This document shows, piece after piece, positions 2,801 to 56,296 of a DNA stretch of 64,000 nucleotides (position 1 is the first letter of the stretch; each line of letters starts with the position of its first letter). The stretch spans positions 2,844 to 66,843 of the forward strand of contig CAJVXN010000001.1 in the NCBI GenBank assembly GCA_913009335.1, in the 5' to 3' direction. Source of the DNA: an uncultured bacterium. Its GTDB lineage: Bacteria; Omnitrophota; Gorgyraeia; Ghiorseimicrobiales; Ghiorseimicrobiaceae. Below the pieces are notes generated by a model. The model saw nothing but the letters and a program-made list of their open reading frames with translations. It did not search any database and was not told the origin of the DNA. Made by a program: the position numbers and the translations under genes.

Positions 2801-4181
2801 ACTCTACCTCCAAGAGATGTGTCGAACAAGATATGCACGGGTCATATGCGCGGGCGAGCATCTCAAGATTTAGCTGTATTTCTTTTTTGGTTTTAGAAGG
2901 AAAAAGCTGAGGAACGAGTTCTTTCATGTCATTCTCTAAATTAAACAAGTTCTGTGCGGTAGGAATAATGCAGTTAGCGTGAGTAATTATACCGTTTTTA
3001 TCAACTGTATAATCATGATATAGGGTTCCGCGCGGTACCTCTACCGCACCCACCCCTCTGCCGGGCTTTACCTTAATTGGACGCTTCTTAACACTCGGCC
3101 AAGAAGTAACCAAACTTTCTTTTTCATTCAACCCCTTATCCAGTAATTCATCAATAATCTTAATCGACTCTTCCAGGCAATGCCTCCACTCAACAAGCTG
3201 TGCCACAGTATTTAAATAAGGATTATGAGATGGAGCAGAAAGACCTAAGCTTTTAGCTGCTTTTTTTGCCGCAGGATGAAGAAATTTATAGCTGTTATTA
3301 AAACGGGCAAGGGCTCCCACAGCATAAGACTCATCCTTAATAGAGGCAAATTTAGCCGTAGAGTAATCGCGAATAAATTCATTAACTACATTTAGATATT
3401 TCTGCGGATCAGTATTTTTCTTTGTTGAACTTACGTAAATATCACCGTCTAAATAAGCATAAGTTCCCAACTGTTTTAAAGAGACATACTGGGTGGGACG
3501 TATAAATTTCGGAAACTTTAATGTTTTGAATACCGCTACTGTCGCTTCGTAATCAACCCGAGAATCCGTCATCATTTTACGGAGTTTTAATAATGTCTTT
3601 TTAGCGGGCAGTTTGGTAAGCCCTCCGATGACAAAACTTATTGGGTGCACATGCCTACCGGCTAAAACATCACTGGTATAATCAGACATCTTCTTCATTC
3701 GTAAAGCAATTTCAATAACACTACGGTGAGTTTTAATCAAAGGGAATATACTATTTACGCCCAATAAATCAGGGGCAATTAAAATATAAAAATGTAATAC
3801 ATGACTGTCCATTGTCTCGGCATGCAATAACAATTGACGCAAGAGCTTAGTCTGCTTACTTACTTTAACACCCAGCGCAGCCTCTCCTGCCTTGATAGAA
3901 GCCAGGGTATGGCCGCAAGCGCAAATACCGCAAATACGACTGGTTATATGCTGCGCCTCATAAATAGAGCGGCCTACCAGCATAGACTCAAAAAATCGGG
4001 GCGATTCAATTACTTCAAAGCGACAATCAAGAAGCTTACCGTCCTTGACCTTAACCATAATATTGCCGTGTCCCTCTACGCGGGTTAAATATTTTACCTC
4101 TATATCCATATTACTCTTTGATTTCTTTAACATACTTTTTCTCCACAGCTGTATATAAAGTAAATTTATCAATAATCTCAT
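2793..4181 (-). CDS. [NiFe] hydrogenase large (alpha) subunit, group 3 (3b-like); the real start is probably the internal Met near 4109 (MDIEVKYLTRVEGHG)
   Basis: N-terminal RICGICACGHTLAS (RxCGxCxxxH) and C-terminal DPCISCSTHLLEVEFV (DPCxxCxxH plus a cleavable tail). Confidence 0.85.
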   Translation of the reverse strand: MRLLINLLYIQLWRKSMLKKSKSNMDIEVKYLTRVEGHGNIMVKVKDGKLLDCRFEVIESPRFFESMLVGRSIYEAQHITSRICGICACGHTLASIKAGEAALGVKVSKQTKLLRQLLLHAETMDSHVLHFYILIAPDLLGVNSIFPLIKTHRSVIEIALRMKKMSDYTSDVLAGRHVHPISFVIGGLTKLPAKKTLLKLRKMMTDSRVDYEATVAVFKTLKFPKFIRPTQYVSLKQLGTYAYLDGDIYVSSTKKNTDPQKYLNVVNEFIRDYSTAKFASIKDESYAVGALARFNNSYKFLHPAAKKAAKSLGLSAPSHNPYLNTVAQLVEWRHCLEESIKIIDELLDKGLNEKESLVTSWPSVKKRPIKVKPGRGVGAVEVPRGTLYHDYTVDKNGIITHANCIIPTAQNLFNLENDMKELVPQLFPSKTKKEIQLNLEMLARAYDPCISCSTHLLEVEFV

Positions 4182-11282: not shown

Positions 11283-11645
11283 TTATTTATTAAGACCTCC
11301 CAGAATATCATCAACCCAAGATAGTGACGCCATGGCTCTGGGCCAGCCAATAGTAGTAATAGCTAAAATCGCAGCATGGTAGATTTCTTCATCGCCTATT
11401 CCCGCTTTTTTACATTTACGGACATGAGAATGCACCCCGCCCTCAAGACCTGCCCCAATAGCAATGCCCAGCTTAACCAACCTCTGCGCGCGCTCATCAA
11501 TAGCGCCGACTCCTCTGACAGACTCTCCTAACTTTGTATAACTTTCCCAAACTTGCGGATATTTCTTAATGACTTTTTGTAAAAATTCAGGTAATTCTTT
11601 ATTCATCTCTGCCTCCTCAATGAGTACACGATTTACGGAATGCAA
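11283..11645 (-). CDS. Carboxymuconolactone decarboxylase / AhpD-like family protein
   Basis: 120 aa. A helical AhpD-like core (GGVHSHVRKCKKAGIGDEEIYHAAIL). Confidence 0.5.
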   Translation of the reverse strand: MHSVNRVLIEEAEMNKELPEFLQKVIKKYPQVWESYTKLGESVRGVGAIDERAQRLVKLGIAIGAGLEGGVHSHVRKCKKAGIGDEEIYHAAILAITTIGWPRAMASLSWVDDILGGLNK

Positions 11646-11739
11646 ATCGTAAGTACGAATTGATCCCGCCGAATATTTAAAAATTATCGTAGAAAATTTT
11701 CAAATAGATTATGAGGCGGGGTAACATTCAATTGCCTTA

Positions 11740-24650: not shown

Positions 24651-25004
24651 CTAAGCATTATCTTGGGACCCCTTAATACCCAGAGCATACAACTTACCGA
24701 CTAGTTCAAATGCCGGCATCTTACTTACTAGAATCGGCACATTCTCACTCTCTGCTTTTTTAACAGTATCTTCTTCAGGCTCTCTATTGTTTATCAATAC
24801 AATGCCGGATAGCCCTTTCATGCTAGCCACTGCCACAACATTACTATGAATCTGTAAGGTAATCCATAAATCACCTTCTCGCGCATTAGCTAGCACATCA
24901 CTTAAAAGATCGCTTGCATACCCCCCTGTTACTTCCCTATCTAAATCCGTAGCCGTACCTATTACCTCTAAGCTCATTTTTTCTACTATTTCTTTTAATT
25001 TCAT
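24651..25004 (-). CDS. DRTGG-domain protein
   Basis: 117 aa. DREVTGGYASDLLSDVL matches the DRTGG family. A paralog is at 26190-26543. Confidence 0.6.
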   Translation of the reverse strand: MKLKEIVEKMSLEVIGTATDLDREVTGGYASDLLSDVLANAREGDLWITLQIHSNVVAVASMKGLSGIVLINNREPEEDTVKKAESENVPILVSKMPAFELVGKLYALGIKGSQDNA

Positions 25005-25272
25005 TTTTCACCTCAATGAGTCCGCCATTGAATCAGTGGCGGGCGAATTGATCCCGCCTGTCCCGCGTTTTTTGGCGGGGTTGAGTGTATCAAAATTATC
25101 GCACCCTCTGGAATTTCACTCCGTGAAATTCCGAGGACTTTAGTCCCGGGAATTCTTCTAATTCCACGGGGAGAAAATTTTGATACTTCTTATCCTCTGC
25201 AATTCAGAGAATTGCGAGGACTTAATCCCTGAAATTTCTCCGAAATTTCTAGGGGCGAAACGGGATTTCATT
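25005..25272. repeat. Intergenic structured repeat element rich in GAATT-core hairpins. A related copy in opposite orientation is at 55335-55513.
   Basis: It shares the 22-nt string tccgccattgaatcagtggcgg (as its reverse complement) and a ccgagga(c)tt(t)agtcccgggaatt segment with 55335-55513. It contains gaatttcac-tcc-gtgaaattc (9-bp stem) and gcaattc-aga-gaattgc hairpins. Confidence 0.7.
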
Positions 25273-28500: not shown

Positions 28501-28648
28501 AACTTATATCCTCTAATGACGACACAAGTTATAAAGCTATAAACTATATAACTTGTACGTCGGAATTAGACCCTTGACATCTTTGATGTCAAGGGTAAGT
28601 TCGGACAGACACCTTACGTCATTAACATTCCGTAAGCTGTGCCCTCAC
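28501..28648. repeat. Structured intergenic element (three hairpins), paralogous to 29057-29176
   Basis: Shared segment cgtcggaatt(a/g)(g/a)acccttgacatctttgatgtcaagggta with a perfect 11-bp palindrome cccttgacatc/gatgtcaaggg. Flanking hairpins acaagttata/tataacttgt and cttacg/cgtaag. Confidence 0.75.
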
Positions 28649-29056
28649 TTACAGCACTCTCTCGCTGCCGACTGCCAAGGCGTATTCTTTAACAATATTT
28701 CCGCCAATTACGTGTTTTTCTAAAATTTCTTTAGCCTTATCAGGCGTTAAATCTACGTATTTAACCGGCGGTTCATTCTTCATTTCAACTGTTACCATAG
28801 GTTCACGACTGCAAAACCCCGCACAGCTGGACAATGTTAAAATCACATCTTTTAAATCGCGCTTTTCAATTTCTTCCATAAGGGCGGTCATAACAGTTCT
28901 AGCACCTGCGGCAATTCCACATGTACCCATATGCACAATCACTCTTGCGCGAGACTCTCCCTCGCGCAGATTTATTGTTTTCTTCATCTTCGCAGCTATC
29001 CTATCTAAATCTTCCGGTTTTAATTTTGGCATAATTAACTCCTTCAATGACGACAA
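28649..29056 (-). CDS. HndB/NuoE-type thioredoxin-like [2Fe-2S] ferredoxin (small)
   Basis: 135 aa. HMGTCGIAAGA...SSCAGFCSREP Cys pattern. Confidence 0.6.
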   Translation of the reverse strand: MSSLKELIMPKLKPEDLDRIAAKMKKTINLREGESRARVIVHMGTCGIAAGARTVMTALMEEIEKRDLKDVILTLSSCAGFCSREPMVTVEMKNEPPVKYVDLTPDKAKEILEKHVIGGNIVKEYALAVGSERVL

Positions 29057-29176
29057 AGGTTATGGAGTTAAAAACGACATAACTTTTGCGTCGGAATTGA
29101 ACCCTTGACATCTTTGATGTCAAGGGTAGATTCAGCCAGCAAGCTTACGAAGCGAAATCGTTCGTAAGCTTGGGCT
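29057..29176. repeat. Structured intergenic element (three hairpins), paralogous to 28501-28648
   Basis: Same conserved palindrome. The third hairpin is caagcttacgaa/ttcgtaagcttg, a 12-bp stem that compensates for the cttacg/cgtaag stem of the other copy. Confidence 0.75.
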
Positions 29177-30130
29177 TCATTTATACTTCTTTAAAACGTC
29201 ATCTACCTTGCTTATTTTCACATATCCATAAATATCATCATTAACAGATACTGCCGGTGATTGACCACAACAACCAATACAGTTAACCGTATCAAGGCTA
29301 AAGTTCAAATCTTTTGTCGTCTCACCGACTTTTATACCTAATTTATTCTCTAAAGAATGTAATATTTTATTTCCGCCTTTAACATAACAAGATGTCCCCA
29401 TGCAAACCCTAATAATATTTTTGCCTCTTGGCTTAAGGCTAAAAGCATTATAAAAAGTAGAAACGCGAAATACATGCGTAAACGGAAGTTCCATAAGCTG
29501 CGATACATACCAAAGGACATTTTCAGGAAAATAACCATAGGTACGATCAATTTCCTGTAAAATAAAAATAAGAGCTCCCTTGGTATTCCTGTAAGCATCA
29601 ACCATCTCTTCAACTCTGGACTTTTCTGACTTATCAAGTTTGGTCACAAATCGCTCATCATCTTCTGCTTCTTTCTTTAAATCAGTTATATTAAATATCC
29701 ATCTTAGTTTAGGATCATAGCTACGGTTCTTTACTATATTTCTAATAGTAGTTAAATAATCCGGGATGTATATATTGATATCATTTTTTACCTTAACCTG
29801 ACAAGCAAGACGCATATTATCATGTTTTTCCTCGCGGCTCATAAATATTTCCTCGGTAGGAAGTATTTCACCGCCGCCGTTTAATACTTTTATCTTGCAA
29901 TACCCACAAGTTGCTTTACCACCGCAAGAAGATGAAACATTTATATCATTCGCGGTAAGATCGGCAATTAAATAATTCCCGCCTTCAACAACAAACTCCT
30001 TCTCCTGGTCTTCCTGCTTAACGGTTATCTTACATTCACCATAATTAATAAGCACGCGGTCGGCGATGGTAAGCAAAACCGTTACCACGAGAAGAATCCC
30101 ATTCATTACTATTACAGGTAAAAAATTCAT
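29177..30130 (-). CDS. Membrane-anchored fusion: NqrF-type plant-like 2Fe-2S ferredoxin domain plus NuoE-type thioredoxin-like 2Fe-2S domain. It occupies the RnfB/NqrF position of the operon.
   Basis: N-terminal TM helix. SSCGGKATCGYCKIKV...LACQV (NqrF/ferredoxin 2Fe-2S). C-terminal RVCMGTSCYVKG...CIGCCGQSPAV (NuoE motif). 317 aa. Confidence 0.6.
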   Translation of the reverse strand: MNFLPVIVMNGILLVVTVLLTIADRVLINYGECKITVKQEDQEKEFVVEGGNYLIADLTANDINVSSSCGGKATCGYCKIKVLNGGGEILPTEEIFMSREEKHDNMRLACQVKVKNDINIYIPDYLTTIRNIVKNRSYDPKLRWIFNITDLKKEAEDDERFVTKLDKSEKSRVEEMVDAYRNTKGALIFILQEIDRTYGYFPENVLWYVSQLMELPFTHVFRVSTFYNAFSLKPRGKNIIRVCMGTSCYVKGGNKILHSLENKLGIKVGETTKDLNFSLDTVNCIGCCGQSPAVSVNDDIYGYVKISKVDDVLKKYK

Positions 30131-30154
30131 AATAAATAAACTTTGATAAGGAAA

Positions 30155-30742
30155 CTATTGAATCCTGACCATCCCTCCAAAACCTAAAAACGCTAAAGCA
30201 ATAATTCCCGCGATAATCATGATAATGCCCGGGCCGCGAAGCCCCTTAGGAATATCTGAAACTAATCTTAATTTTTCATTTATCGCTGCAACTATCAAGA
30301 TTGCCAGCATCCAGCCTACGGCTGAACCAAAAGCAAAAACAATAGTGGCTAAGTATGAATAGCTTCTTAGCACCATAAAAAGGGAGACTGCCAATACTGT
30401 ACAATTTACGGTTATCAGCGGAAGAAAAATCCCGAAAGAAGCCTGCAAAACGACAAAAAATTTCTCCATAATCATCTCAACCAGCTGAACGCTTGCGGCA
30501 ATAACAATGATAAAAACGATATAGTAAATAAGCTCACATCCTGCCGGAACAAGAATTAAATGATAAATAGGCCAGTTAATAGCTGCCGTAAGCGTTACTA
30601 CAAAAATTACGGCAATACCCATACCAAAAGCAGTCTTAAAACTTTTAGATAAAGCTATAAAAGGACACATGCCTAATAAATAGGTAAGCGCAATATTATG
30701 CGTAAAAACAGCAGCAATAAAAATAGTTAATAAATTACCCAT
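30155..30742 (-). CDS. rnfA: Rnf/Nqr complex subunit A (RnfA/NqrE family)
   Basis: 195 aa, six-TM, polar Cys in TM (GCELIYY). Operon position. Confidence 0.7.
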   Translation of the reverse strand: MGNLLTIFIAAVFTHNIALTYLLGMCPFIALSKSFKTAFGMGIAVIFVVTLTAAINWPIYHLILVPAGCELIYYIVFIIVIAASVQLVEMIMEKFFVVLQASFGIFLPLITVNCTVLAVSLFMVLRSYSYLATIVFAFGSAVGWMLAILIVAAINEKLRLVSDIPKGLRGPGIIMIIAGIIALAFLGFGGMVRIQ

Positions 30743-30744
30743 AA

Positions 30745-31374
30745 TTATTCCTTGGACTCAACTCCTGCGATAGTTCTTGTTATCCACAAATAAATACTCA
30801 ATACAAAAAATGCCCCCGGAGCCATAGCCATCATTACCCAATTTGTCCAACCATCAGGCATGACCCTAAAACCTAAAATAGTACCAAAGCCTAGCGACTC
30901 GCGCACAATAGCAATAATCACCAGTGTATACGAATAGCCCAATCCAACACCCAATCCATCCATCATAGAATGCGTTATTTTATTCTTACTGGCAAAAGCC
31001 TCGGCTCTTCCCATGATAATACAGTTGGTAATAATAAGCCCGACATAAGGACCGATAGCTTCACGTATTACAGGATAAAAAGCCTGCAGGAAACGGTCTA
31101 CAATAATTACAAAAGAAGCAATGGCTATCATGTAAGTTATAATACGCACACGAGCAGGTATAAAATTCCTTAAAGCGGAGATAGTAAGAGCCGTAAAGAT
31201 TAAAACAAAGGTAACGCCGGCACCCATAGCAATGGCATTTTCTACTTTATTTGTTACGGCTAAACCGGAACAAATACCTAAAAGCATACAAAAAACAGGA
31301 TTATCGCGCCAAAGGCCAATCATCATAACCTTAAACCCTTTCGCGCGTAGAAGTTTTTTTATGTTCTTTGCCAT
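30745..31374 (-). CDS. rnfE: Rnf/Nqr complex subunit E (RnfE/NqrD family)
   Basis: 209 aa integral membrane protein, paralogous fold to subunit A. Operon position. Confidence 0.7.
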   Translation of the reverse strand: MAKNIKKLLRAKGFKVMMIGLWRDNPVFCMLLGICSGLAVTNKVENAIAMGAGVTFVLIFTALTISALRNFIPARVRIITYMIAIASFVIIVDRFLQAFYPVIREAIGPYVGLIITNCIIMGRAEAFASKNKITHSMMDGLGVGLGYSYTLVIIAIVRESLGFGTILGFRVMPDGWTNWVMMAMAPGAFFVLSIYLWITRTIAGVESKE

Positions 31375-31377
31375 ATT

Positions 31378-31950
31378 CTAGTTTTCCTTAATAAGTGCTA
31401 AATACTCTCCCACCTGATTATTTATTAATTCTTCAAATGCCTTACTCGTCATTGTAGCTCCTGTAATCGCATCCACTTCATTTTCTGCCTTTGCCTTACC
31501 ATGAGGCACAATTTTTAAAGCTGGGAATACTTTTTTACCCTGAAACTTAGCTAAGTATTCTTCTTCGCTAATCCTGCCCCCTAAACCGGGAGTCTCCTCC
31601 TGATGTATAATAGTTATCCCTTTAATACTTTCAAAATCCGGATTAAAAGCAATAATTCCTTTAATCGGACCCCATACACCCGAACCCTTAATTCCAAATG
31701 CAACCTCCCTTGAGAGAGATAGATAGAATTCCTTATTTTCTTTTTGTACTACTTCAATATTATCAGAGAATATATCCTCTAAGTTTTCCTTGGTGTAAGA
31801 AATATCAAAAACATCAAGTACGCTTCTCTTCTTCTTAAGCTCCTCATTCTTTTGGATGATGGGAGTCGTATAATGATTAATCGCAACAAGCAACGTAGTA
31901 AAGAAGCTTCCCAGAAGTACAACGAAAATGATAATTTTTAATACTTTCAT
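31378..31950 (-). CDS. rnfG: Rnf/Nqr complex subunit G (RnfG/NqrC), FMN-binding
   Basis: N-terminal TM anchor. DAITGATMTSKAF (covalent-FMN Thr motif). 190 aa. Confidence 0.75.
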   Translation of the reverse strand: MKVLKIIIFVVLLGSFFTTLLVAINHYTTPIIQKNEELKKKRSVLDVFDISYTKENLEDIFSDNIEVVQKENKEFYLSLSREVAFGIKGSGVWGPIKGIIAFNPDFESIKGITIIHQEETPGLGGRISEEEYLAKFQGKKVFPALKIVPHGKAKAENEVDAITGATMTSKAFEELINNQVGEYLALIKEN

Positions 31951-31955
31951 TTATA

Positions 31956-33053
31956 TTAGGTGGTTGGTTTTAATTTACCAGTTACCTTCTTAGGTTCTTT
32001 ATATTTTACTGCAAGCACAACATGATCAATTAAAGGCGCAAAAGCATTCATTAAAAGTATGCTGAACATAACCCCTTCAACATAACCGGAAAGCGCACGA
32101 ATTAAAACTGTTAATAATCCTAGCAATATCCCCCCTACCCATTTCCCTTCCTTGGTAAAAGGTGAAGTTACCGGATCAGTAGCCATAAACATCGCGCCAA
32201 AAAGAAGCCCGCCGGTTAAAAGCTGAAAACTTGGCGGTGCAAATTTTAGGGGTGCTAAATTATTGCCGATAAGTGAGAATATAGCTACCGAAGCTAAATA
32301 GGAAAAAGGTATGCGCCAATTAACTATACGTGTTATAATCAAAAATATTCCGCCGAGAATTATTCCCAACCTAAAGACTTCACCGATACATCCCCCGCTA
32401 AACCCAAACAGTAAATCACTAAATGATGCTAAGACATTCTCACTACGAAAAGCATTTAAAGGTGTCGCAGCTGTTATGGCATCCACGCCAAATTTACTAA
32501 ACCCCCCTAAACCCCCGATATAAGGCTTGGGCCAACCTACGGTCATTATCAAAGGAAAGCATATAGTTAAAAAAATCCTGCCGACAATCGCCGGGTTAAA
32601 TATGTTTTTACCTGTTCCGCCAAATACTTCTTTTCCAAAAAATACACCAAACATAACCCCAAGGGCTACAACCCATAAAGGAATAGACGGCGGAAGCAGT
32701 AACGGAAAAATTAATCCCGTAACCAAAAATCCTTCATGTATTTCTTTCTTTCGCGCAACCGCAAAAGCAACTTCTACCACACCGCCGGCTATATAAGAAA
32801 CAAGTATGACTAAGATCACACGCAGTCCCCAAAAATAAACCGCTGCAGCTACAGCAGGAAGAAGAGCAATAATCACAAAACTCATATAACGTTTTATATC
32901 AAGATAATCGGTTATGTGAGGAACCGTATTTAGCTCATCCGTGCCAAAAAGAGCTCCATCCAGAGCAGTTAATACCGGTTTAAATTTACTTAGAAATTTA
33001 TTCTTCTCTACTAGCTTAAAACTTATATCCAACGCCTTACGGACTATCTTCAT
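31956..33053 (-). CDS. rnfD: Rnf/Nqr complex subunit D (RnfD/NqrB)
   Basis: 365 aa polytopic membrane protein. GGLLFGAMFMATDPVTSP conserved region. Confidence 0.7.
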   Translation of the reverse strand: MKIVRKALDISFKLVEKNKFLSKFKPVLTALDGALFGTDELNTVPHITDYLDIKRYMSFVIIALLPAVAAAVYFWGLRVILVILVSYIAGGVVEVAFAVARKKEIHEGFLVTGLIFPLLLPPSIPLWVVALGVMFGVFFGKEVFGGTGKNIFNPAIVGRIFLTICFPLIMTVGWPKPYIGGLGGFSKFGVDAITAATPLNAFRSENVLASFSDLLFGFSGGCIGEVFRLGIILGGIFLIITRIVNWRIPFSYLASVAIFSLIGNNLAPLKFAPPSFQLLTGGLLFGAMFMATDPVTSPFTKEGKWVGGILLGLLTVLIRALSGYVEGVMFSILLMNAFAPLIDHVVLAVKYKEPKKVTGKLKPTT

Positions 33054-34555
33054 AATTTAGTAGTTATTCCTTTGTATTCTTTAAGCCCTTTTAACTTAAA
33101 ATGCGGTAAAATGCTGCTCGACCGTTCGATTCCCTCCATGGCCAATTTTTTCTCGCCTTCTTTTATAAGTTCAAGAAGGGGAATTTTCGAAGGACACACA
33201 TAGCTGCATAAACCACATCCAATACAATTAAAAATCTTAAATCTTACTAAAGAATCATCGATTATATTATTTTTTACATACTTACCCAATAAATGCGGAA
33301 TTATCTGCACAGGGCAAACTTCTTCGCAATAATTACAGCTTATGCATGGCCTCAGTTCTCCGTGAATATTCGTATCCAGGGTCTTATCACAAAACGGAAA
33401 AACACTTGATGCAAACGTATTAGAATAAGCATCGCGCTTAACGCCCAAGCGAAGGAATGAGAAAAACTCTCTCTTATTATTCTCCGGCAAAGCAATAATC
33501 TTAGAAGTTGCCTTAGTTACAGGTAAAGATAAATCTGTAAGTTTATCACCCACAAGTGTATTTTCTAAAACAATTCGCGAACTTACATCAGTTCTTAAAT
33601 AAGATTTAAGAATATCCGCTATAGGCGTACCTATCCTCACCTTCAAATGCGGCGTATCATTAAACCCCGGTCCGCAGATGGCAATAGTACGCTCAATTAA
33701 AGGCTTCCCTTTTACTACTGCCTCATATACGGAAAGTATTGTCTGAGCGTTTAAAACAATTACCCCGAGATTAGCGGCATAATAGCCAAATGGAAACTTC
33801 TCACCCAAAACAGTCGCAACAAGCATCTCATCATACCCCTGAGGATACTTTGGCTCTAAAGAAATAATATTGATAAAGCCATATTGAGAAACAGCCTCAG
33901 ATAACTTTTCATTAATCTGCATATCAGTCTTACTTAAGGCAAGGTAAATATTAGCCTGAGGCATAAAAGCATGCAAAATCCGTAATCCTTCTATGTAATC
34001 TAAAACCCTTTTTTCGCCCAATAATAATTCTTGAGAAAGATTATAAACGTCAAATCCGATTGCAGGAACAATAATACTTCTAACATCTTTAGGGGTAATG
34101 ATTGAGCTTTTAAATTTTGTGGGAATTCCTGATTTATCTAAAGAAGTTACGCCAGCTAAATACAATATGCTTTCAATTTCCTCATTTTTTAGTTTCGCCC
34201 AATCAGAAGTAAACCCTTTAACTTTTTTACAATCATCTGCTTTATCTTTCCGGGTAGATATTCTTACTATTTGAGTTTCATGCCCCAAATAGTTTGAAAG
34301 CTTTATTTCTTTAACTACCCCAGATACAGATGCATGCACAGGGCTTGAGACATTTGAATCATCCCTTCCGATAATCTGTCCTGCGACTACAATATCACCT
34401 TCCTTTACCAAAGAAACAACACCCATCCCAAAACCTTGCTTTAAAGGAATAAGCACTTCATTAGGAATATCTTGCGTAGTCAGCATATCACGCGGACAAC
34501 CCTCAATTCGCCTGAAACGATACCCGCCCTTGAATGTATATTGTTTTTTCTTCAT
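33050..34555 (-). CDS. rnfC: Rnf complex subunit C-like (RnfC/NqrA family) with C-terminal 2x[4Fe-4S]
   Basis: N-terminal barrel-sandwich domain (SSPVHASVSGVVKEI). C-terminal CISCNYCEEVCP and CIGCGLCSYVCP. The expected GGAGFP NADH/FMN glycine motif appears as CGPGFNDTP. 501 aa. Confidence 0.6.
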   Translation of the reverse strand: MKKKQYTFKGGYRFRRIEGCPRDMLTTQDIPNEVLIPLKQGFGMGVVSLVKEGDIVVAGQIIGRDDSNVSSPVHASVSGVVKEIKLSNYLGHETQIVRISTRKDKADDCKKVKGFTSDWAKLKNEEIESILYLAGVTSLDKSGIPTKFKSSIITPKDVRSIIVPAIGFDVYNLSQELLLGEKRVLDYIEGLRILHAFMPQANIYLALSKTDMQINEKLSEAVSQYGFINIISLEPKYPQGYDEMLVATVLGEKFPFGYYAANLGVIVLNAQTILSVYEAVVKGKPLIERTIAICGPGFNDTPHLKVRIGTPIADILKSYLRTDVSSRIVLENTLVGDKLTDLSLPVTKATSKIIALPENNKREFFSFLRLGVKRDAYSNTFASSVFPFCDKTLDTNIHGELRPCISCNYCEEVCPVQIIPHLLGKYVKNNIIDDSLVRFKIFNCIGCGLCSYVCPSKIPLLELIKEGEKKLAMEGIERSSSILPHFKLKGLKEYKGITTKL

Positions 34556-34613
34556 ATTATATGTTTAGCCCCGATAAACTTTAGCTACACAAACTACAAA
34601 ACCTAACAAGCGA

Positions 34614-34703
34614 TTGTACTGCGTTTCGCACAGCACCCCACTGTATTTACCCAATGGTTGCACTGCGCTTTACGCAGCACCCCACTGTATTTATCTAATG
34701 GTT
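34614..34703. repeat. Two tandem ~44-bp direct repeats with internal palindromes, between rex and rnfC
   Basis: tgtactgcgtttcgcacagcaccccactgtatttacccaatggt and tgcactgcgctttacgcagcaccccactgtatttatctaatggt. The second contains ctgcg-cttta-cgcag. A Rex-box-like TTGTTAAATAGCTCACAG (3 mismatches) follows at 34701-34718. Confidence 0.7.
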
Positions 34704-34747
34704 GTTAAATAGCTCACAGTGAAATCAATCACGACCTTAGGAAAAAA

Positions 34748-38704: not shown

Positions 38705-39421
38705 TTATTTTTTCTTTAATTTCTCAACTGCTTCTGTTACCATTTCACCTACTAAATCCTTACAACCTAAACCAAACGCCAAAGCAAGCCCCAAACCTAA
38801 AGCTGCAAGAATAATAGTTATCAAGGTGTTAATAACCGCAGCTCCAATATTAAGCTGCTCCAAAGCAATAACTGATGCAAGAACAATAATAATAACTTCA
38901 ACTATTTTAGCCAGTAGTTTTGCTTGGTCAATTCCAGCGTTAGCTGCGGCTGTTTGAACTGTCGCAGATAAAAAAGTTGCCACAAACATACCTAACGCTA
39001 ATACGATTATAGCAATAATAACATTCGGTATATAAAGTATAATTTGATTCAGTAGATCTGCTGCCATAGTTAGGCCCACGGAATTTACAGCCACTACTAC
39101 CACAATAAGTAAAACCAGCCAATAACATATTGCGCCTATTAATTCGGCCAGTGTAAACTTAATTCCGCCTCTAGCTAAAAAAGAGTTTGCCCCGATTTGA
39201 TCGGCAATTGAATCAATCTTAATAAGCTTAAGCAGCCTAGTAATTAGACGCTGGATAAACTTTGCGATAAGCCAGCCGATAACAAGAATAATAATTACCA
39301 GGACAAGATTACCTAACAATACACCAATGCGGCTAAGTAAATTACTTATGGGTTCGAACAAAACCGTTCTCCACATAATACTCCTCCTTTCAATGAACGC
39401 ATAACTTACGAACATAAACAT
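38705..39421 (-). CDS. Integral membrane protein with conserved TM-helix repeats (mechanosensitive-channel-associated type). The start is probably the internal Met (MWRTVL).
   Basis: A highly hydrophobic multi-helix protein with a short charged C-terminus. No catalytic motifs. Confidence 0.35.
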   Translation of the reverse strand: MFMFVSYAFIERRSIMWRTVLFEPISNLLSRIGVLLGNLVLVIIILVIGWLIAKFIQRLITRLLKLIKIDSIADQIGANSFLARGGIKFTLAELIGAICYWLVLLIVVVVAVNSVGLTMAADLLNQIILYIPNVIIAIIVLALGMFVATFLSATVQTAAANAGIDQAKLLAKIVEVIIIVLASVIALEQLNIGAAVINTLITIILAALGLGLALAFGLGCKDLVGEMVTEAVEKLKKK

Positions 39422-39498
39422 GTGAGTAAGTTATATGCGTGAATTGATCCCGCCAACGGCGGGATACATTCCATTCAGTAACAGCACATAATAACGAA

Positions 39499-55334: not shown

Positions 55335-55513
55335 CTTTATTAACTCCCTTGCTTAAGCATCCGCCACTGATTCAATGGCGGATAAGCTTTAGGATCCCCG
55401 AGGAAATTTTAAAATTCCCGGGACTAAGTCCTGGAAATTCAAAAGAATTTCTCAGGGAAATTCGGACAGATAAGTTATTCCTGACTATCGGTAGACATAA
55501 CTTATGTCCTCAT
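55335..55513. repeat. Intergenic structured repeat element, a copy of the 25005-25272 family in opposite orientation
   Basis: Contains ccgccactgattcaatggcgg, the reverse complement of ccgccattgaatcagtggcgg at 25020. Also cccgggactaagtcctgg-type palindromes. Confidence 0.7.
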
Positions 55514-56296
55514 TTATTTTTTTTCGCTTTTGTATAAATCAAAGGCTGCCTTTACCGAAAGCTTATTGTGAACAATTTCCCTTACTGCCTTTATCATTCC
55601 TTGCGGACAATCAGACTGAAATATATTACGGCCCATATCCACGCCTATGGCCCCTTCATTAACCGCATTATAAGCTAACTCCAACGCTTTCTTCTCTTCA
55701 ATCTTCTTACCTCCGGCAATAACAATAGGGACGGGGCAATTTTTAACTATTCTGTTGAAATTATCGCAATAATATGTCTTAACAATATGTGCCCCTAATT
55801 CTGCGGCAATACGACAACACAACCCCAGATAACGTACGTCGCGAGCCATCTCTTTTCCTACAGCCGTAACCGCTAAAACAGGAATGCCATACTTTTCTCC
55901 CGCATCGACAAGCCTGGACAGGCTTGTTAAAGTTTCTTTTTCATAATCTGAGCCTACAAATATAGAAAGTGCTACAGCTGAAACATTCAGCTTGATAGCA
56001 TCTTCCATAGAAACCGTTATATTCTCATTGGCCAGGGATTTTCCCACTATACTTGTACCTCCGGAAACGCGTAGTACAATAGGAATATCGCTCTTCGGCG
56101 CGACAGAAGTCCTTAAGACACCCCTAGTAAGCATTAATGAATCAGCGTAAGGAAGAATAGGCTCAATGGTCTTTGCCGGATCCTCCAAACCAGAAGTAGG
56201 ACCTAAAAAATAACCATGATCCACTGCCAGCATTACCGTACGATTTGTATCCGGTTTAATTATTCTACTGATTCGATTTTCCATTCCCCAATCCAT
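55514..56296 (-). CDS. DhnA/archaeal-type class I aldolase family (FBP aldolase / ADH synthase / LsrF-like)
   Basis: 260 aa. VMLAVDHGYFLGP N-terminal motif. TIM-barrel aldolase features. Confidence 0.55.
   Translation of the reverse strand: MDWGMENRISRIIKPDTNRTVMLAVDHGYFLGPTSGLEDPAKTIEPILPYADSLMLTRGVLRTSVAPKSDIPIVLRVSGGTSIVGKSLANENITVSMEDAIKLNVSAVALSIFVGSDYEKETLTSLSRLVDAGEKYGIPVLAVTAVGKEMARDVRYLGLCCRIAAELGAHIVKTYYCDNFNRIVKNCPVPIVIAGGKKIEEKKALELAYNAVNEGAIGVDMGRNIFQSDCPQGMIKAVREIVHNKLSVKAAFDLYKSEKK

Follow-up and report, generated by a model that had tools for sequence, protein, structure and literature searches.

Two hairpin-rich spacers of an Omnitrophota hnd operon as probable copies of a dispersed, modular intercistronic repeat

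We analysed two intercistronic spacers of an hnd-type operon in a 64,000-nt window of contig CAJVXN010000001.1, which came from an uncultured Omnitrophota bacterium (assembly GCA_913009335.1). Spacer A (29176-29033, 144 nt) separated the hndA- and hndB-like genes, and spacer B (28648-28501, 148 nt) separated the hndB- and hndC-like genes. It was probable that the elements filling them, copies A and B, were sister copies of a dispersed, modular and polar intercistronic repeat of Omnitrophota that had been inserted twice into this operon. Sequence comparison pointed to a member of a dispersed modular repeat family and not to an hnd-specific regulator. The family was apparently undescribed, with neither an Rfam match nor a literature record: literature searches on the motif and on repeats of Omnitrophota yielded no description of the element.

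Results

Occurrence and architecture of the repeat family

Metagenome contigs were scanned for exact matches to the 23-mer of the central hairpin, H2 (CCTTGACATCNNNGATGTCAAGG), which gave at least 120 stretches, and the family counts below rested on those listed. Many of these stretches shared flanks with the window copies. A profile hidden Markov model (HMM) made from A and B had full-length matches in dozens of metagenome loci. Using nhmmer, we located 187 places in at least 120 loci, which were sorted by HMM coverage into 46 full copies, 29 with H2+D3, 25 with D3 only, 18 with D1(+H2), 52 with H2 only and 17 others.

The full unit was about 140 nt long and consisted, in the mRNA sense, of module D1, hairpin H2, module D3, GGAGG, 5-8 nt and ATG, and the module order was the same throughout an alignment of 21 full copies. 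The 5' motif of D1 (TAAGTGAGG or AAATGAAG) carried the stop codon of the upstream gene. H2, with the consensus CCTTGACATC-N3-GATGTCAAGG, was replaceable or omitted, and D3 was closed by UUCAAU-UC.../...UC-AUUGAA with GGAGG following directly. The 5' half of the 21-copy consensus read TAAGTGAGGCCAC or AAATGAAGCCAC, then hairpin H1 (AACTTAyGGAAC...GTGAACrTAAGTT), GTTTGGCCGAACTTAC and H2; its 3' half read GTTAAATTCGCAC, then hairpin H3 (ATAACTTAyGTCG...CTCCrTAAGTTAT), GTGCTCATTnAAGGAGG, 5-8 nt and ATG. As DNA, the unit was a quasi-palindrome around H2 in which D3 approximated the reverse complement of D1. Modules occurred singly or swapped. In places H2 had long loops or was replaced by hairpins of the CCCCACACCAATT type or CCCGCC-GTT-GGCGGG, and the D3 frame could enclose H2 itself.

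At several sites H2 was nested in a truncated H2, as CCCTTGAC (CCTTGACATC...GATGTCAAGG) GTCAAGGG, or stood in tandem with variant H2 hairpins (L160 ~690-760, L152 ~830-900, L094 10470-10530 and L100/L186; L numbers denote the compared loci). A different palindrome (CCCCCACACCAATT...) occupied the element centre at L119 and L143. From such arrangements, the centre looked like a hot spot for palindrome insertion.

Family members were nearly always sense-oriented between a stop codon and a start codon. Namely, an open reading frame (ORF) of at least 60 aa started no more than 28 nt from the 3' TCATT in 69 of the 85 copies with enough flank; on the opposite side such a start was present in 7, and random positions had one in 18% of cases. 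The usual 3' end of the element was TCATTnAAGGAGG-N5-8-ATG. At the other end, 37 of the 63 copies with a D1 end had a same-strand stop of the upstream gene inside the 5' motif or adjacent to it. This stop was TAA at offset 11 in 24 copies and TGA at offset 15 in 8, with 2 more at offset 12, and these 34 were all inside TAAGTGA. The motif had stops in two frames, and copies A and B of the window obeyed the same rule. The downstream genes were unrelated to each other, including those for GroEL (three times), RecA, RpoA, SecY, GlnA, AroC, Hcp, ThrC and others, and the element was also found between groES and groEL. Thus, a gene-class-specific regulator was excluded.

All carriers that could be named belonged to Omnitrophota/Omnitrophica, namely the window and three loci. 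Two of these were assigned to Omnitrophota through a GlnA cluster (L177) and through GroEL relatives (L167), and the GroEL of the third (L210, GCA_028715415.1) was named by NCBI as that of a Candidatus Omnitrophica bacterium. A scan of viral contigs for H2 gave one contig only. The density varied: two loci (L211, L212) had no copy in 12-19 kb, and the densest case was a gas-vesicle (gvp) cluster (L178, 1-9598) in which six consecutive intercistronic spacers within 9.6 kb held a full or near-full element. Copies A and B were mutually nearest, with 75% identity to each other and at most 69% to any other copy.

Anatomy of copies A and B

All ORFs around the spacers were on the minus strand, and this together with the Pfam gene order identified both spacers as intercistronic. 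Since the genes and the transcript were on the minus strand, the hairpin sequences quoted in the original prediction, although present, were those of the antisense strand. The start that it gave for the hndB-like gene, a TTG at 29056, had to be replaced by the ATG at 29032.

A repeat search of the window gave a direct repeat of 115 nt (28504-28618 and 29035-29149, 80% identity), and the mean column identity of the pairwise alignment of the full spacers was 84%. The common stretch of about 50 nt and the hairpins described earlier were all recovered in this way. The shared palindrome, H2, was indeed perfect in both spacers; its arms were 12 nt long rather than 11 (ACCCTTGACATC / GATGTCAAGGGT, 100% complementary, 3-nt loop). 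Its 25-mer occurred at two window sites only, with 0.00 expected from 100 shuffles. The two further hairpins reported for each spacer, differing in sequence between the copies, corresponded to inverted repeats I8, I9, I11 and I24 (Table 1). A fourth helix had been overlooked. It surrounded the last hairpin, abutted the Shine-Dalgarno sequence and differed between A and B by a compensatory swap of CT/AG to TC/GA. In copy A it was formed by TTCAATTCCGAC / GTCGTCATTGAA (I22; long-range form UUCAAUUCCGAC / GUCGUCAUUGAA) and in copy B by TCTAATTCCGAC / GTCGTCATTAGA (I18; long-range form UCUAAUUCCGAC / GUCGUCAUUAGA).

The predicted folding energies of the sense-strand RNA were -60.1 and -64.8 kcal/mol for A and B (z = -8.6 and -8.1), and none of 200 shuffles was as good. 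The view that structured elements stood inside a polycistron was therefore borne out, as they were intercistronic and folded on the sense strand. Rfam searches yielded nothing but noise (ToxI, mir-787, OppA thermometer), both for the region with E up to 10 and for the whole window with the gathering threshold.

Conservation of the helices

The helices were real and maintained. In 18 seed sequences of the D3/D1 helix, 94.7% pairing was observed and 11 of 20 pairs were changed on both sides. Among 124 model matches, 95.2% of cells were paired and 19 of the 20 pairs were doubly changed (519 double-change cells); this alignment, unlike that of the seed sequences, had been fitted to the model and was thereby biased towards pairing. 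None of 500 shuffles reached the values of the 124 matches, and slid controls were 27-46% paired. The compensatory changes proposed for the two spacers thus held between A and B and throughout the 124 family members.

The sense D3 copies contained 10 G-U pairs and 15 A-C mismatches, so that there was no wobble excess. This comparison was suggestive, not decisive, as to DNA- or RNA-level constraint because the same module was used in both orientations. The Watson-Crick-only pattern, the two-orientation module and the free-centre palindromes were no less compatible with a repeat carried as DNA than with a classic selected RNA.

Related hnd operons

Identical HndB sequences were found in a metagenome-assembled genome of a Candidatus Omnitrophica bacterium (GCA_011051015.1) and in marine metagenome assemblies. 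A protein-guided scan provided 80 related hndB loci from named genomes (HndB identity 45-86%). In these 80 loci, blastn-short, the two-copy HMM and the family HMM detected no homologue of the element, and the hndA-hndB and hndB-hndC gaps were mostly 0-30 nt. The close relatives L006 (86% HndB identity), L206 (87%) and L207 (83%) had spacers of 13 and 27 nt, 10 and 15 nt, and 11 and 17 nt, respectively, all without the element.

Alignment of the junctions revealed the insertions. At hndB|hndC, the ancestral TAA-ATGAGG-(A/G)TATA(A/G)G(T/C)T-ATG corresponded to TAA-GTGAGG-(133 nt)-ATATAAGTT-ATG in the window; at hndA|hndB, AAATGA-GGATAAGGCG-ATG corresponded to AAATGA-AG(...)CATTGAAGGAGTTAATT-ATG. 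On this alignment evidence, the element appeared to have entered both stop-codon/Shine-Dalgarno junctions in the window lineage. The same site was thus full in the window, empty in L006, L206 and L207, and partial in a further relative, L217. The 27-nt spacer of L006 (TAAATGAGGATATAAGTTATAGAGGAG) resembled a remnant of the D1 5' end.

The original prediction had proposed elements for mRNA processing or stability, or for differential translation, inside the operon and had itself held that a lack of conservation in related genomes would speak against them. Their absence from the relatives' loci therefore told largely against conserved regulatory elements of the hnd operon, with L217 and its partial element as the one exception, and the element stood between unrelated genes elsewhere.

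Two independent assemblies broke inside copy B. L003 ended at 3466, within the H2 palindrome, and L004, a 1429-nt contig whose last copy-B match ended at 1313, broke about 20-110 nt beyond H2. Two other contigs of the hnd locus were only 1.3-1.4 kb long. Such repeats fragment metagenome assemblies.

Further copies in the window

A covariance model of D3, R1, was run on the window by cmsearch and was also used in reverse orientation for D1. Together with the family HMM, it gave four further partial copies, C to F, all on the gene strand (Table 1); the two-copy HMM had given A and B only. Copy C lay after pyrG and upstream of a mechanosensitive-channel-like gene (start ATG 39376, in agreement with a 223-aa gene call). 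Copy D lay after moaA and upstream of a CMD-family gene (start ATG 11606, in agreement with a 107-aa gene call). Copy F immediately preceded the ATG of the hnd-containing operon's second DRTGG gene. The mechanical ORF list misplaced two starts inside the repeats, at 39421 and 11645; the real starts, 39376 and 11606, came after the GGAGG of the element, and the 223-aa and 107-aa gene calls that supported them were those of identical contigs.

Long spacers at 25060-25270 and 55340-55450 (minus strand) contained more related hairpins, of the types GGAATTTC..GAAATTCC and CCCGGGACTAAAGTCCTCGG / CCAGGACTTAGTCCCGGG. Their sequences suggested that this genome contained another small repeat family.

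Table 1. Features of the hnd region and copies of the repeat in the window
Feature	Position	Strand	Remarks
rex	35383-34748	minus	Pfam
rnfC	34555-33050	minus	Pfam
RnfD/G/E-size ORFs	between rnfC and rnfA		NQR2_RnfD_RnfE, FMN_bind and Rnf-Nqr calls on identical contig
rnfA	30742-30155	minus	Pfam
Fer2 + NuoE-like gene (hndA position)	30130-29177	minus	TGA stop 29179-29177
HndB-like gene	29032-28649	minus	127 aa, thioredoxin-like [2Fe-2S] protein; ATG 29032-29030, TAA 28651-28649
NuoF/HndC-like gene	28500-26689	minus	ATG 28500-28498
DRTGG, CBS-HATPase, DRTGG, PHP genes	after NuoF/HndC-like gene, in that order		Pfam
Copy A, D1	29128..29182	minus	5' motif AAATGAAGCC holds TGA stop (29179-29177) of Fer2/NuoE-like gene; reverse-orientation R1 match 29125-29193; family HMM positions 6-172
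Copy A, hairpin H1 of D1			CAAGCTTACGAA / TTCGTAAGCTTG; D1 3' strand GCTGGCTGAATCTA
Copy A, H2	29101..29127	minus	ACCCTTGACATC AAA GATGTCAAGGGT (I13)
Copy A, D3	29034..29102	minus	closing stem UUCAAU-UC-CGAC / GUCG-UC-AUUGAA; R1 cmsearch 74.5 bits, E = 6e-14
Copy A, hairpin H3 of D3			AAAAGUUAUG / CAUAACCUUU; then Shine-Dalgarno GGAG 29042-29039 and hndB-like ATG 29032-29030
Copy A, inverted repeat I8	29054-29069 / 29073-29088		16 nt, 81% complementary
Copy A, inverted repeat I9	29140-29151 / 29161-29172		12 nt, 100% complementary
Copy B, D1	28597..28651	minus	motif TAAGTGAGGGCAC holds hndB-like TAA stop (28651-28649), stop-codon offset 11 in family register; I24, I20; reverse-orientation R1 match 28594-28661
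Copy B, hairpin H1 of D1			CTTACG / CGTAAG; D1 3' strand GTCTGTCCGAACTTA
Copy B, H2	28570..28596	minus	sequence same as copy A H2 (I12, I1)
Copy B, D3	28503..28571	minus	closing stem UCUAAU-UC-CGAC / GUCG-UC-AUUAGA; R1 cmsearch 75 bits, E = 5e-14
Copy B, hairpin H3 of D3			ACAAGUUAUA / UAUAACUUGU; then GAGG 28513-28510 and NuoF/HndC-like ATG 28500-28498
Copy B, inverted repeat I11	28524-28536 / 28544-28556		13 nt, 92% complementary
Copy B, inverted repeat I24	28609-28618 / 28631-28640		10 nt, 90% complementary
Copy C, D3 only	39380..39449	minus	R1 67 bits; GC hairpin TCCCGCCGTTGGCGGGA in H2 position
Copy D, D3 only	11607..11665	minus	R1 57.1 bits
Copy E, D1 only	55458..55515	minus	R1 reverse orientation 40.8 bits; TAAATGAGGACAT...CTGTCCGAATTT from TAA stop of DeoC-like gene
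Copy F, weak D3 variant	25003..25053	minus	R1 24.7 bits, E = 0.006; frame TCAATTCGCC...ACTCATTGAGGTG around GC hairpin

Upstream of the spacers (29177-34555), rnfC, the RnfD/G/E-like genes and rnfA were followed directly by the Fer2+NuoE-like fusion, the HndB-like and the NuoF-like genes in place of rnfB. The order of rnf genes followed by Fer2+NuoE-like, HndB-like and NuoF-like genes was common to relatives L207-L209 and L217. The rex/rnfC spacer (34600-34735, minus) contained a sequence of about 45 nt, CCATTrGrTAAATACAGTGGGGTGCTG..GCAGTrCAA, in two imperfect direct copies with one hairpin each; this pair was absent from the Tandem Repeats Finder output. Just upstream of it was a GTGA-N6-TCAC inverted repeat (GTGATTGATTTCAC) that resembled the core of a Rex operator.

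The H2 hairpin in structured RNA genes

H2 was also found inside structured RNA genes. At L118 (1760-1785), in the form CCUUGACAUC-N3-GAUGUCAAGG, it made up the whole P3 helix of a bacterial RNase P RNA. Other RNase P RNA genes called by Rfam overlapped H2 at L201 and L153, and L096 had the same flanking sequence at a contig end with no Rfam call. At L124 (4789-4811), H2 was the tip of the second hairpin of a c-di-GMP-I riboswitch, and Rfam-called c-di-GMP-I aptamers overlapped H2 at six more loci (L170, L183, L182, L102, L149 and L197). Moreover, H2 was present inside a group I intron (L129, 609-631) and inside a 23S rRNA match just upstream of a group I intron call (L131, 850-872). These positions indicated that H2 was either an independently mobile palindrome persisting where a longer hairpin was tolerated, or a recognised handle. 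Other H2-only sites shared flanks with each other and had no Rfam match (L117/L146/L184; L123/L190), and they may represent unknown structured RNAs.

Discussion

How the repeat would spread and act

If A and B were sister copies of a dispersed repeat, then copies would spread as DNA by transposition or by a recombination-type mechanism, and only those insertions that restored a stop codon and a ribosome-binding site would survive. This requirement would explain why the element was tolerated inside tightly coupled operons. Once inserted, it would be co-transcribed and fold into three hairpins. In promoter and terminator scans, neither A nor B had a terminator-like site or, on the sense strand, a promoter-like one, and the only terminator-like site in the region was on the plus strand inside hndB (28945-28969). 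Thus, co-transcription was likely. With cistrons 144 and 148 nt apart and three stable hairpins in each gap, hndB and hndC would therefore have to initiate independently. The relatives' cistron gaps of 10-27 nt allowed translational coupling; in the window lineage, such tight coupling would be replaced by independent initiation at a Shine-Dalgarno sequence beside a stable helix. The flanking cistrons may gain 3' and 5' protective hairpins, as D1 (3') and D3 (5') could act as stabilisers if the transcript were cut between them, and stability, processing and subunit ratios could be altered as a side effect.

The predicted unpaired probability of the Shine-Dalgarno sequence was 0.63 family-wide, exceeding 0.5 in 81% of copies, and that of the element body was 0.31. 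In copy B, the 3' strand of H3 was predicted to pair with the native ATATAAGTTATG flank and to hide the hndC Shine-Dalgarno sequence (unpaired 0.24) and AUG (0.05). In copy A, UUCC may pair with GGAG, and the hndB Shine-Dalgarno sequence was predicted to be unpaired at 0.44. From these folding models, effects of the element on mRNA stability, processing or translation were plausible. There were precedents in the ERIC/REP repeats, which affect mRNA decay (PMC3184786), in the plastid intercistronic expression element (IEE), a short RNA element giving stable translatable monocistronic units from an operon (PMC2230500), and in MIRUs, mobile-looking repeats placed in sense orientation in intercistronic spacers and at start codons with the expression of neighbours preserved (PMC12548453). 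Any such effect would come with carrying a dispersed repeat of this kind in general and would not reflect an adaptation to the subunit stoichiometry of Hnd.

Several observations weighed against this explanation. No mobilising enzyme was found: the Pfam lists, which covered much of the window, contained no transposase. The terminal inverted repeats, AAATGAG(C).../...(G)CTCATTT, were only about 7-9 nt long, imperfect and inside the quasi-palindromic body; because the whole element was quasi-palindromic, its ends were not separable from the body as terminal inverted repeats. Direct repeats flanked copy A (TGAAG) and copy B (GAGG), and these motifs were also part of the conserved termini. A perfect flanking direct repeat was read by eye in only about half of 12 copies, so the 4-5 nt repeats may be target duplications or a mere result of near-palindromic termini. 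The relative L217 (86% HndB identity; 1445-1500 and 1885-2042) carried a D1-type module where hndB stops, and its hndA|hndB junction contained another hairpin insert, of 37 nt; around both lay the GAGG and TGAAG direct repeats known from the window. With inserts at both junctions, these sites would therefore be hot spots or old insertions since remodelled or lost, and the D1 module suggested that the insertion at the hndB stop may be older than the window lineage and partly conserved. Finally, the strict sense orientation and the invariant internal loops (UC/UC in 43-44 of 45 sense D3 copies and, as we infer, GA/GA in D1) went beyond what a purely selfish DNA model predicts. Selection for a function of the RNA, or for the binding of a protein, could be behind them instead.

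Alternative explanations

The last point led to the alternative that the element was a selected RNA punctuation mark, which we regarded as unlikely overall. Here, D1 would give 3' protection at the stop, H2 would be recognised by an endonuclease or RNA-binding protein, and D3 would give 5' protection and present the Shine-Dalgarno sequence; the polycistron would be cut into stable, independently translated units, setting the HndA/B/C stoichiometry. Strict sense polarity, exact stop-to-start placement, invariant internal loops and sequence-conserved stems agreed with it, as did the Shine-Dalgarno accessibility predicted in most copies and the position ahead of housekeeping genes with high expression and in each of six successive spacers of the gvp cluster. 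The recurrence of H2 at helix tips, in RNase P RNA as well as in c-di-GMP-I riboswitches, would suit a protein that binds hairpins, and the plastid IEE and ERIC/REP-dependent mRNA decay were precedents (PMC2230500, PMC3184786). However, there was no excess of G-U over A-C, unlike in typical selected RNA helices. Moreover, D3 was the DNA reverse complement of D1 and H2 was a DNA palindrome with a free 3-nt centre, which pointed to a DNA-level origin; the operons of close relatives functioned without the element; and its density was uneven between loci such as L211/L212 and L178.

A broader version, in which D1 and D3 would mark stops and starts throughout Omnitrophota genomes and H2 would be the handle of a dedicated protein, was judged improbable. 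Such a handle would explain the presence of H2 at RNase P P3, in c-di-GMP-I riboswitch helices and in group I introns. If true, this would be a bacterial mRNA punctuation similar in logic to mitochondrial tRNA punctuation or to plastid PPR/IEE processing.

It was very unlikely that the element served as a portable promoter, with the TTGACA of H2 as a -35 box and a downstream -10 box providing internal starts for hndB and hndC in the manner of the Correia and Neisseria REP2 repeats, which carry promoters and ribosome-binding sites (PMC3184786). A perfect TTGACA was indeed within H2, and TAAATT followed 17 nt downstream in some family copies. However, A and B had no sense-strand promoter, a -10-like hexamer (at least 4/6 matches, A2 and T6, sense) was present in only 8 of 46 family copies, and D3-only copies lacked H2 altogether. 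The sole promoter-like match in the region was antisense, TTGACA-16-TAGATT (29105-29132 plus, 10/12 matches), arising from the H2 of copy A and pointing into the 3' end of the Fer2/NuoE-like gene.

The reading closest to the original prediction, a cis-regulatory RNA specific to hnd (a riboswitch or leader-like sensor) duplicated before hndB and hndC, was largely refuted by the distribution of the element, and we gave it hardly any probability. It would account for the two copies within a single operon, both of which immediately preceded a Shine-Dalgarno sequence and start codon, for the strong folding z-scores, for the predicted hiding of the hndC Shine-Dalgarno sequence and AUG and, in part, of the hndB Shine-Dalgarno sequence, and for the adjoining rex gene. 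However, the nearest relatives lacked the element in their orthologous operons, and the same element preceded unrelated genes, hence there was no link to a gene class. There was no Rfam match even at E = 10 and no conserved unpaired pocket: nearly everything outside the hairpin loops was Watson-Crick paired, and the loops varied.

Local duplication or gene conversion within the hnd operon, with no wider family, was refuted by the same modules at at least 120 independent metagenome loci and at four other window sites, even though A and B were mutual closest relatives with the shared derived features AATTCCGAC/GTCGTC and AGCTTACG.

Other candidates were rejected as well. An operator of Rex or another dimeric regulator did not suit H2, which occurred in at least 120 unrelated contexts including RNA genes. 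The core sites of an integron attC follow the consensus R''/R' = RYYYAAC ... GTTRRRY; the element ended in TAAGTGAGG and CTCATTGAAGGAGG with no core sites, its flanks were syntenic core operon genes, and the neighbourhood Pfam lists contained no integrase. A tRNA-like structure or ribozyme, with GGTTCAATTCC as a T-arm or with hammerhead cores, had no Rfam support, and GGTTCAATTCC paired with TCATTGAA instead. An intrinsic terminator of the SPRITE-like kind, a GC-rich hairpin with a U tract behind it, was discarded since neither spacer contained a terminator-like site.

Comparison with known repeats

The element behaved like small dispersed bacterial repeats and yet differed from each named family in defining features. 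The REP/BIME repeats of Enterobacteria and Pseudomonas are likewise high-copy extragenic palindromic hairpins and mosaics of inverted units with linkers, often lying between genes of one operon, co-transcribed and known to change mRNA stability. The 187 places in at least 120 loci, with D1 and D3 inverted around H2 and modules single or swapped, showed the same mosaic character. However, REP is defined as an imperfect palindrome of 20-40 nt headed by a GTAG or CGTC tetranucleotide (PMC3733652). In the family alignment, the Omnitrophota units had no such head, beginning with TAAGTGAGG or TTCAATTCGC (H2 with CCTTGAC), and they were 55-70 nt long with internal loops. They were also strictly gene-oriented, with a stop codon and a Shine-Dalgarno sequence in their ends, and no RAYT transposase was identified; the analysis covered the 64-kb window and fragments of up to 20 kb, and the Pfam lists contained no transposase.

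MIRUs shared the mobile-looking character, sense orientation, intercistronic position and placement at start codons (PMC12548453), and the Omnitrophota element showed this sense placement with its ends at stop and start codons (69/85 vs 7; 37/63). In contrast, MIRUs act through a small coupled ORF and form tandem arrays, whereas the Omnitrophota copies were single, with no tandem array of the 140-nt unit found, and were hairpin-rich palindromes with stop codons and a Shine-Dalgarno sequence in place of a coupled ORF.

Similar to MITEs (Correia/CREE, ERIC, RUP, BOX) and Neisseria REP2, which are 100-160 bp long, fold into long hairpins and differ in presence between relatives, the element was present or absent at one site among close relatives. 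MITEs are also gene-adjacent and co-transcribed, some of them provide a promoter or a ribosome-binding site or change mRNA decay (PMC3184786), and BOX is modular like the Omnitrophota element. The latter, however, had no long perfect terminal inverted repeats, TA duplication, IHF site or consistent promoter, its orientation bias was far stronger, and its central palindrome also occurred alone inside structured RNA genes. The plastid IEE was comparable as a short intercistronic RNA element whose mechanism is that of the punctuation alternative (PMC2230500), although it is not dispersed but consists of one plastid sequence, to which a PPR-type protein binds.

H2 at the P3 helix of RNase P RNA and at riboswitch tips resembled the Rickettsia palindromic elements and organellar mobile hairpins, while differing from them in sequence and host. 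These short palindromes persist at places that can accommodate an additional hairpin, RNA genes among them. In-frame insertion into protein-coding genes, as known for the Rickettsia palindromic elements, was not seen for the Omnitrophota element. Its distinguishing features were the strict stop-to-start polar architecture and the central hairpin found also inside structured RNA genes.

Implications

The re-assignment of an apparently operon-specific RNA to a dispersed repeat guards against over-reading it as an Hnd regulator. At the practical level, the element misleads the calling of ORF starts and breaks metagenome assemblies, and its H2 hairpin could tag structured RNAs for discovery in Omnitrophota. 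Strict stop-to-start polarity combined with built-in stop codons and Shine-Dalgarno sequences was unusual among small bacterial repeats. In this uncultured phylum, the element occupied spacers of core operons (hnd, groESL, rpoA, secY, gvp), and it therefore probably reshaped translational coupling and possibly mRNA processing as well.

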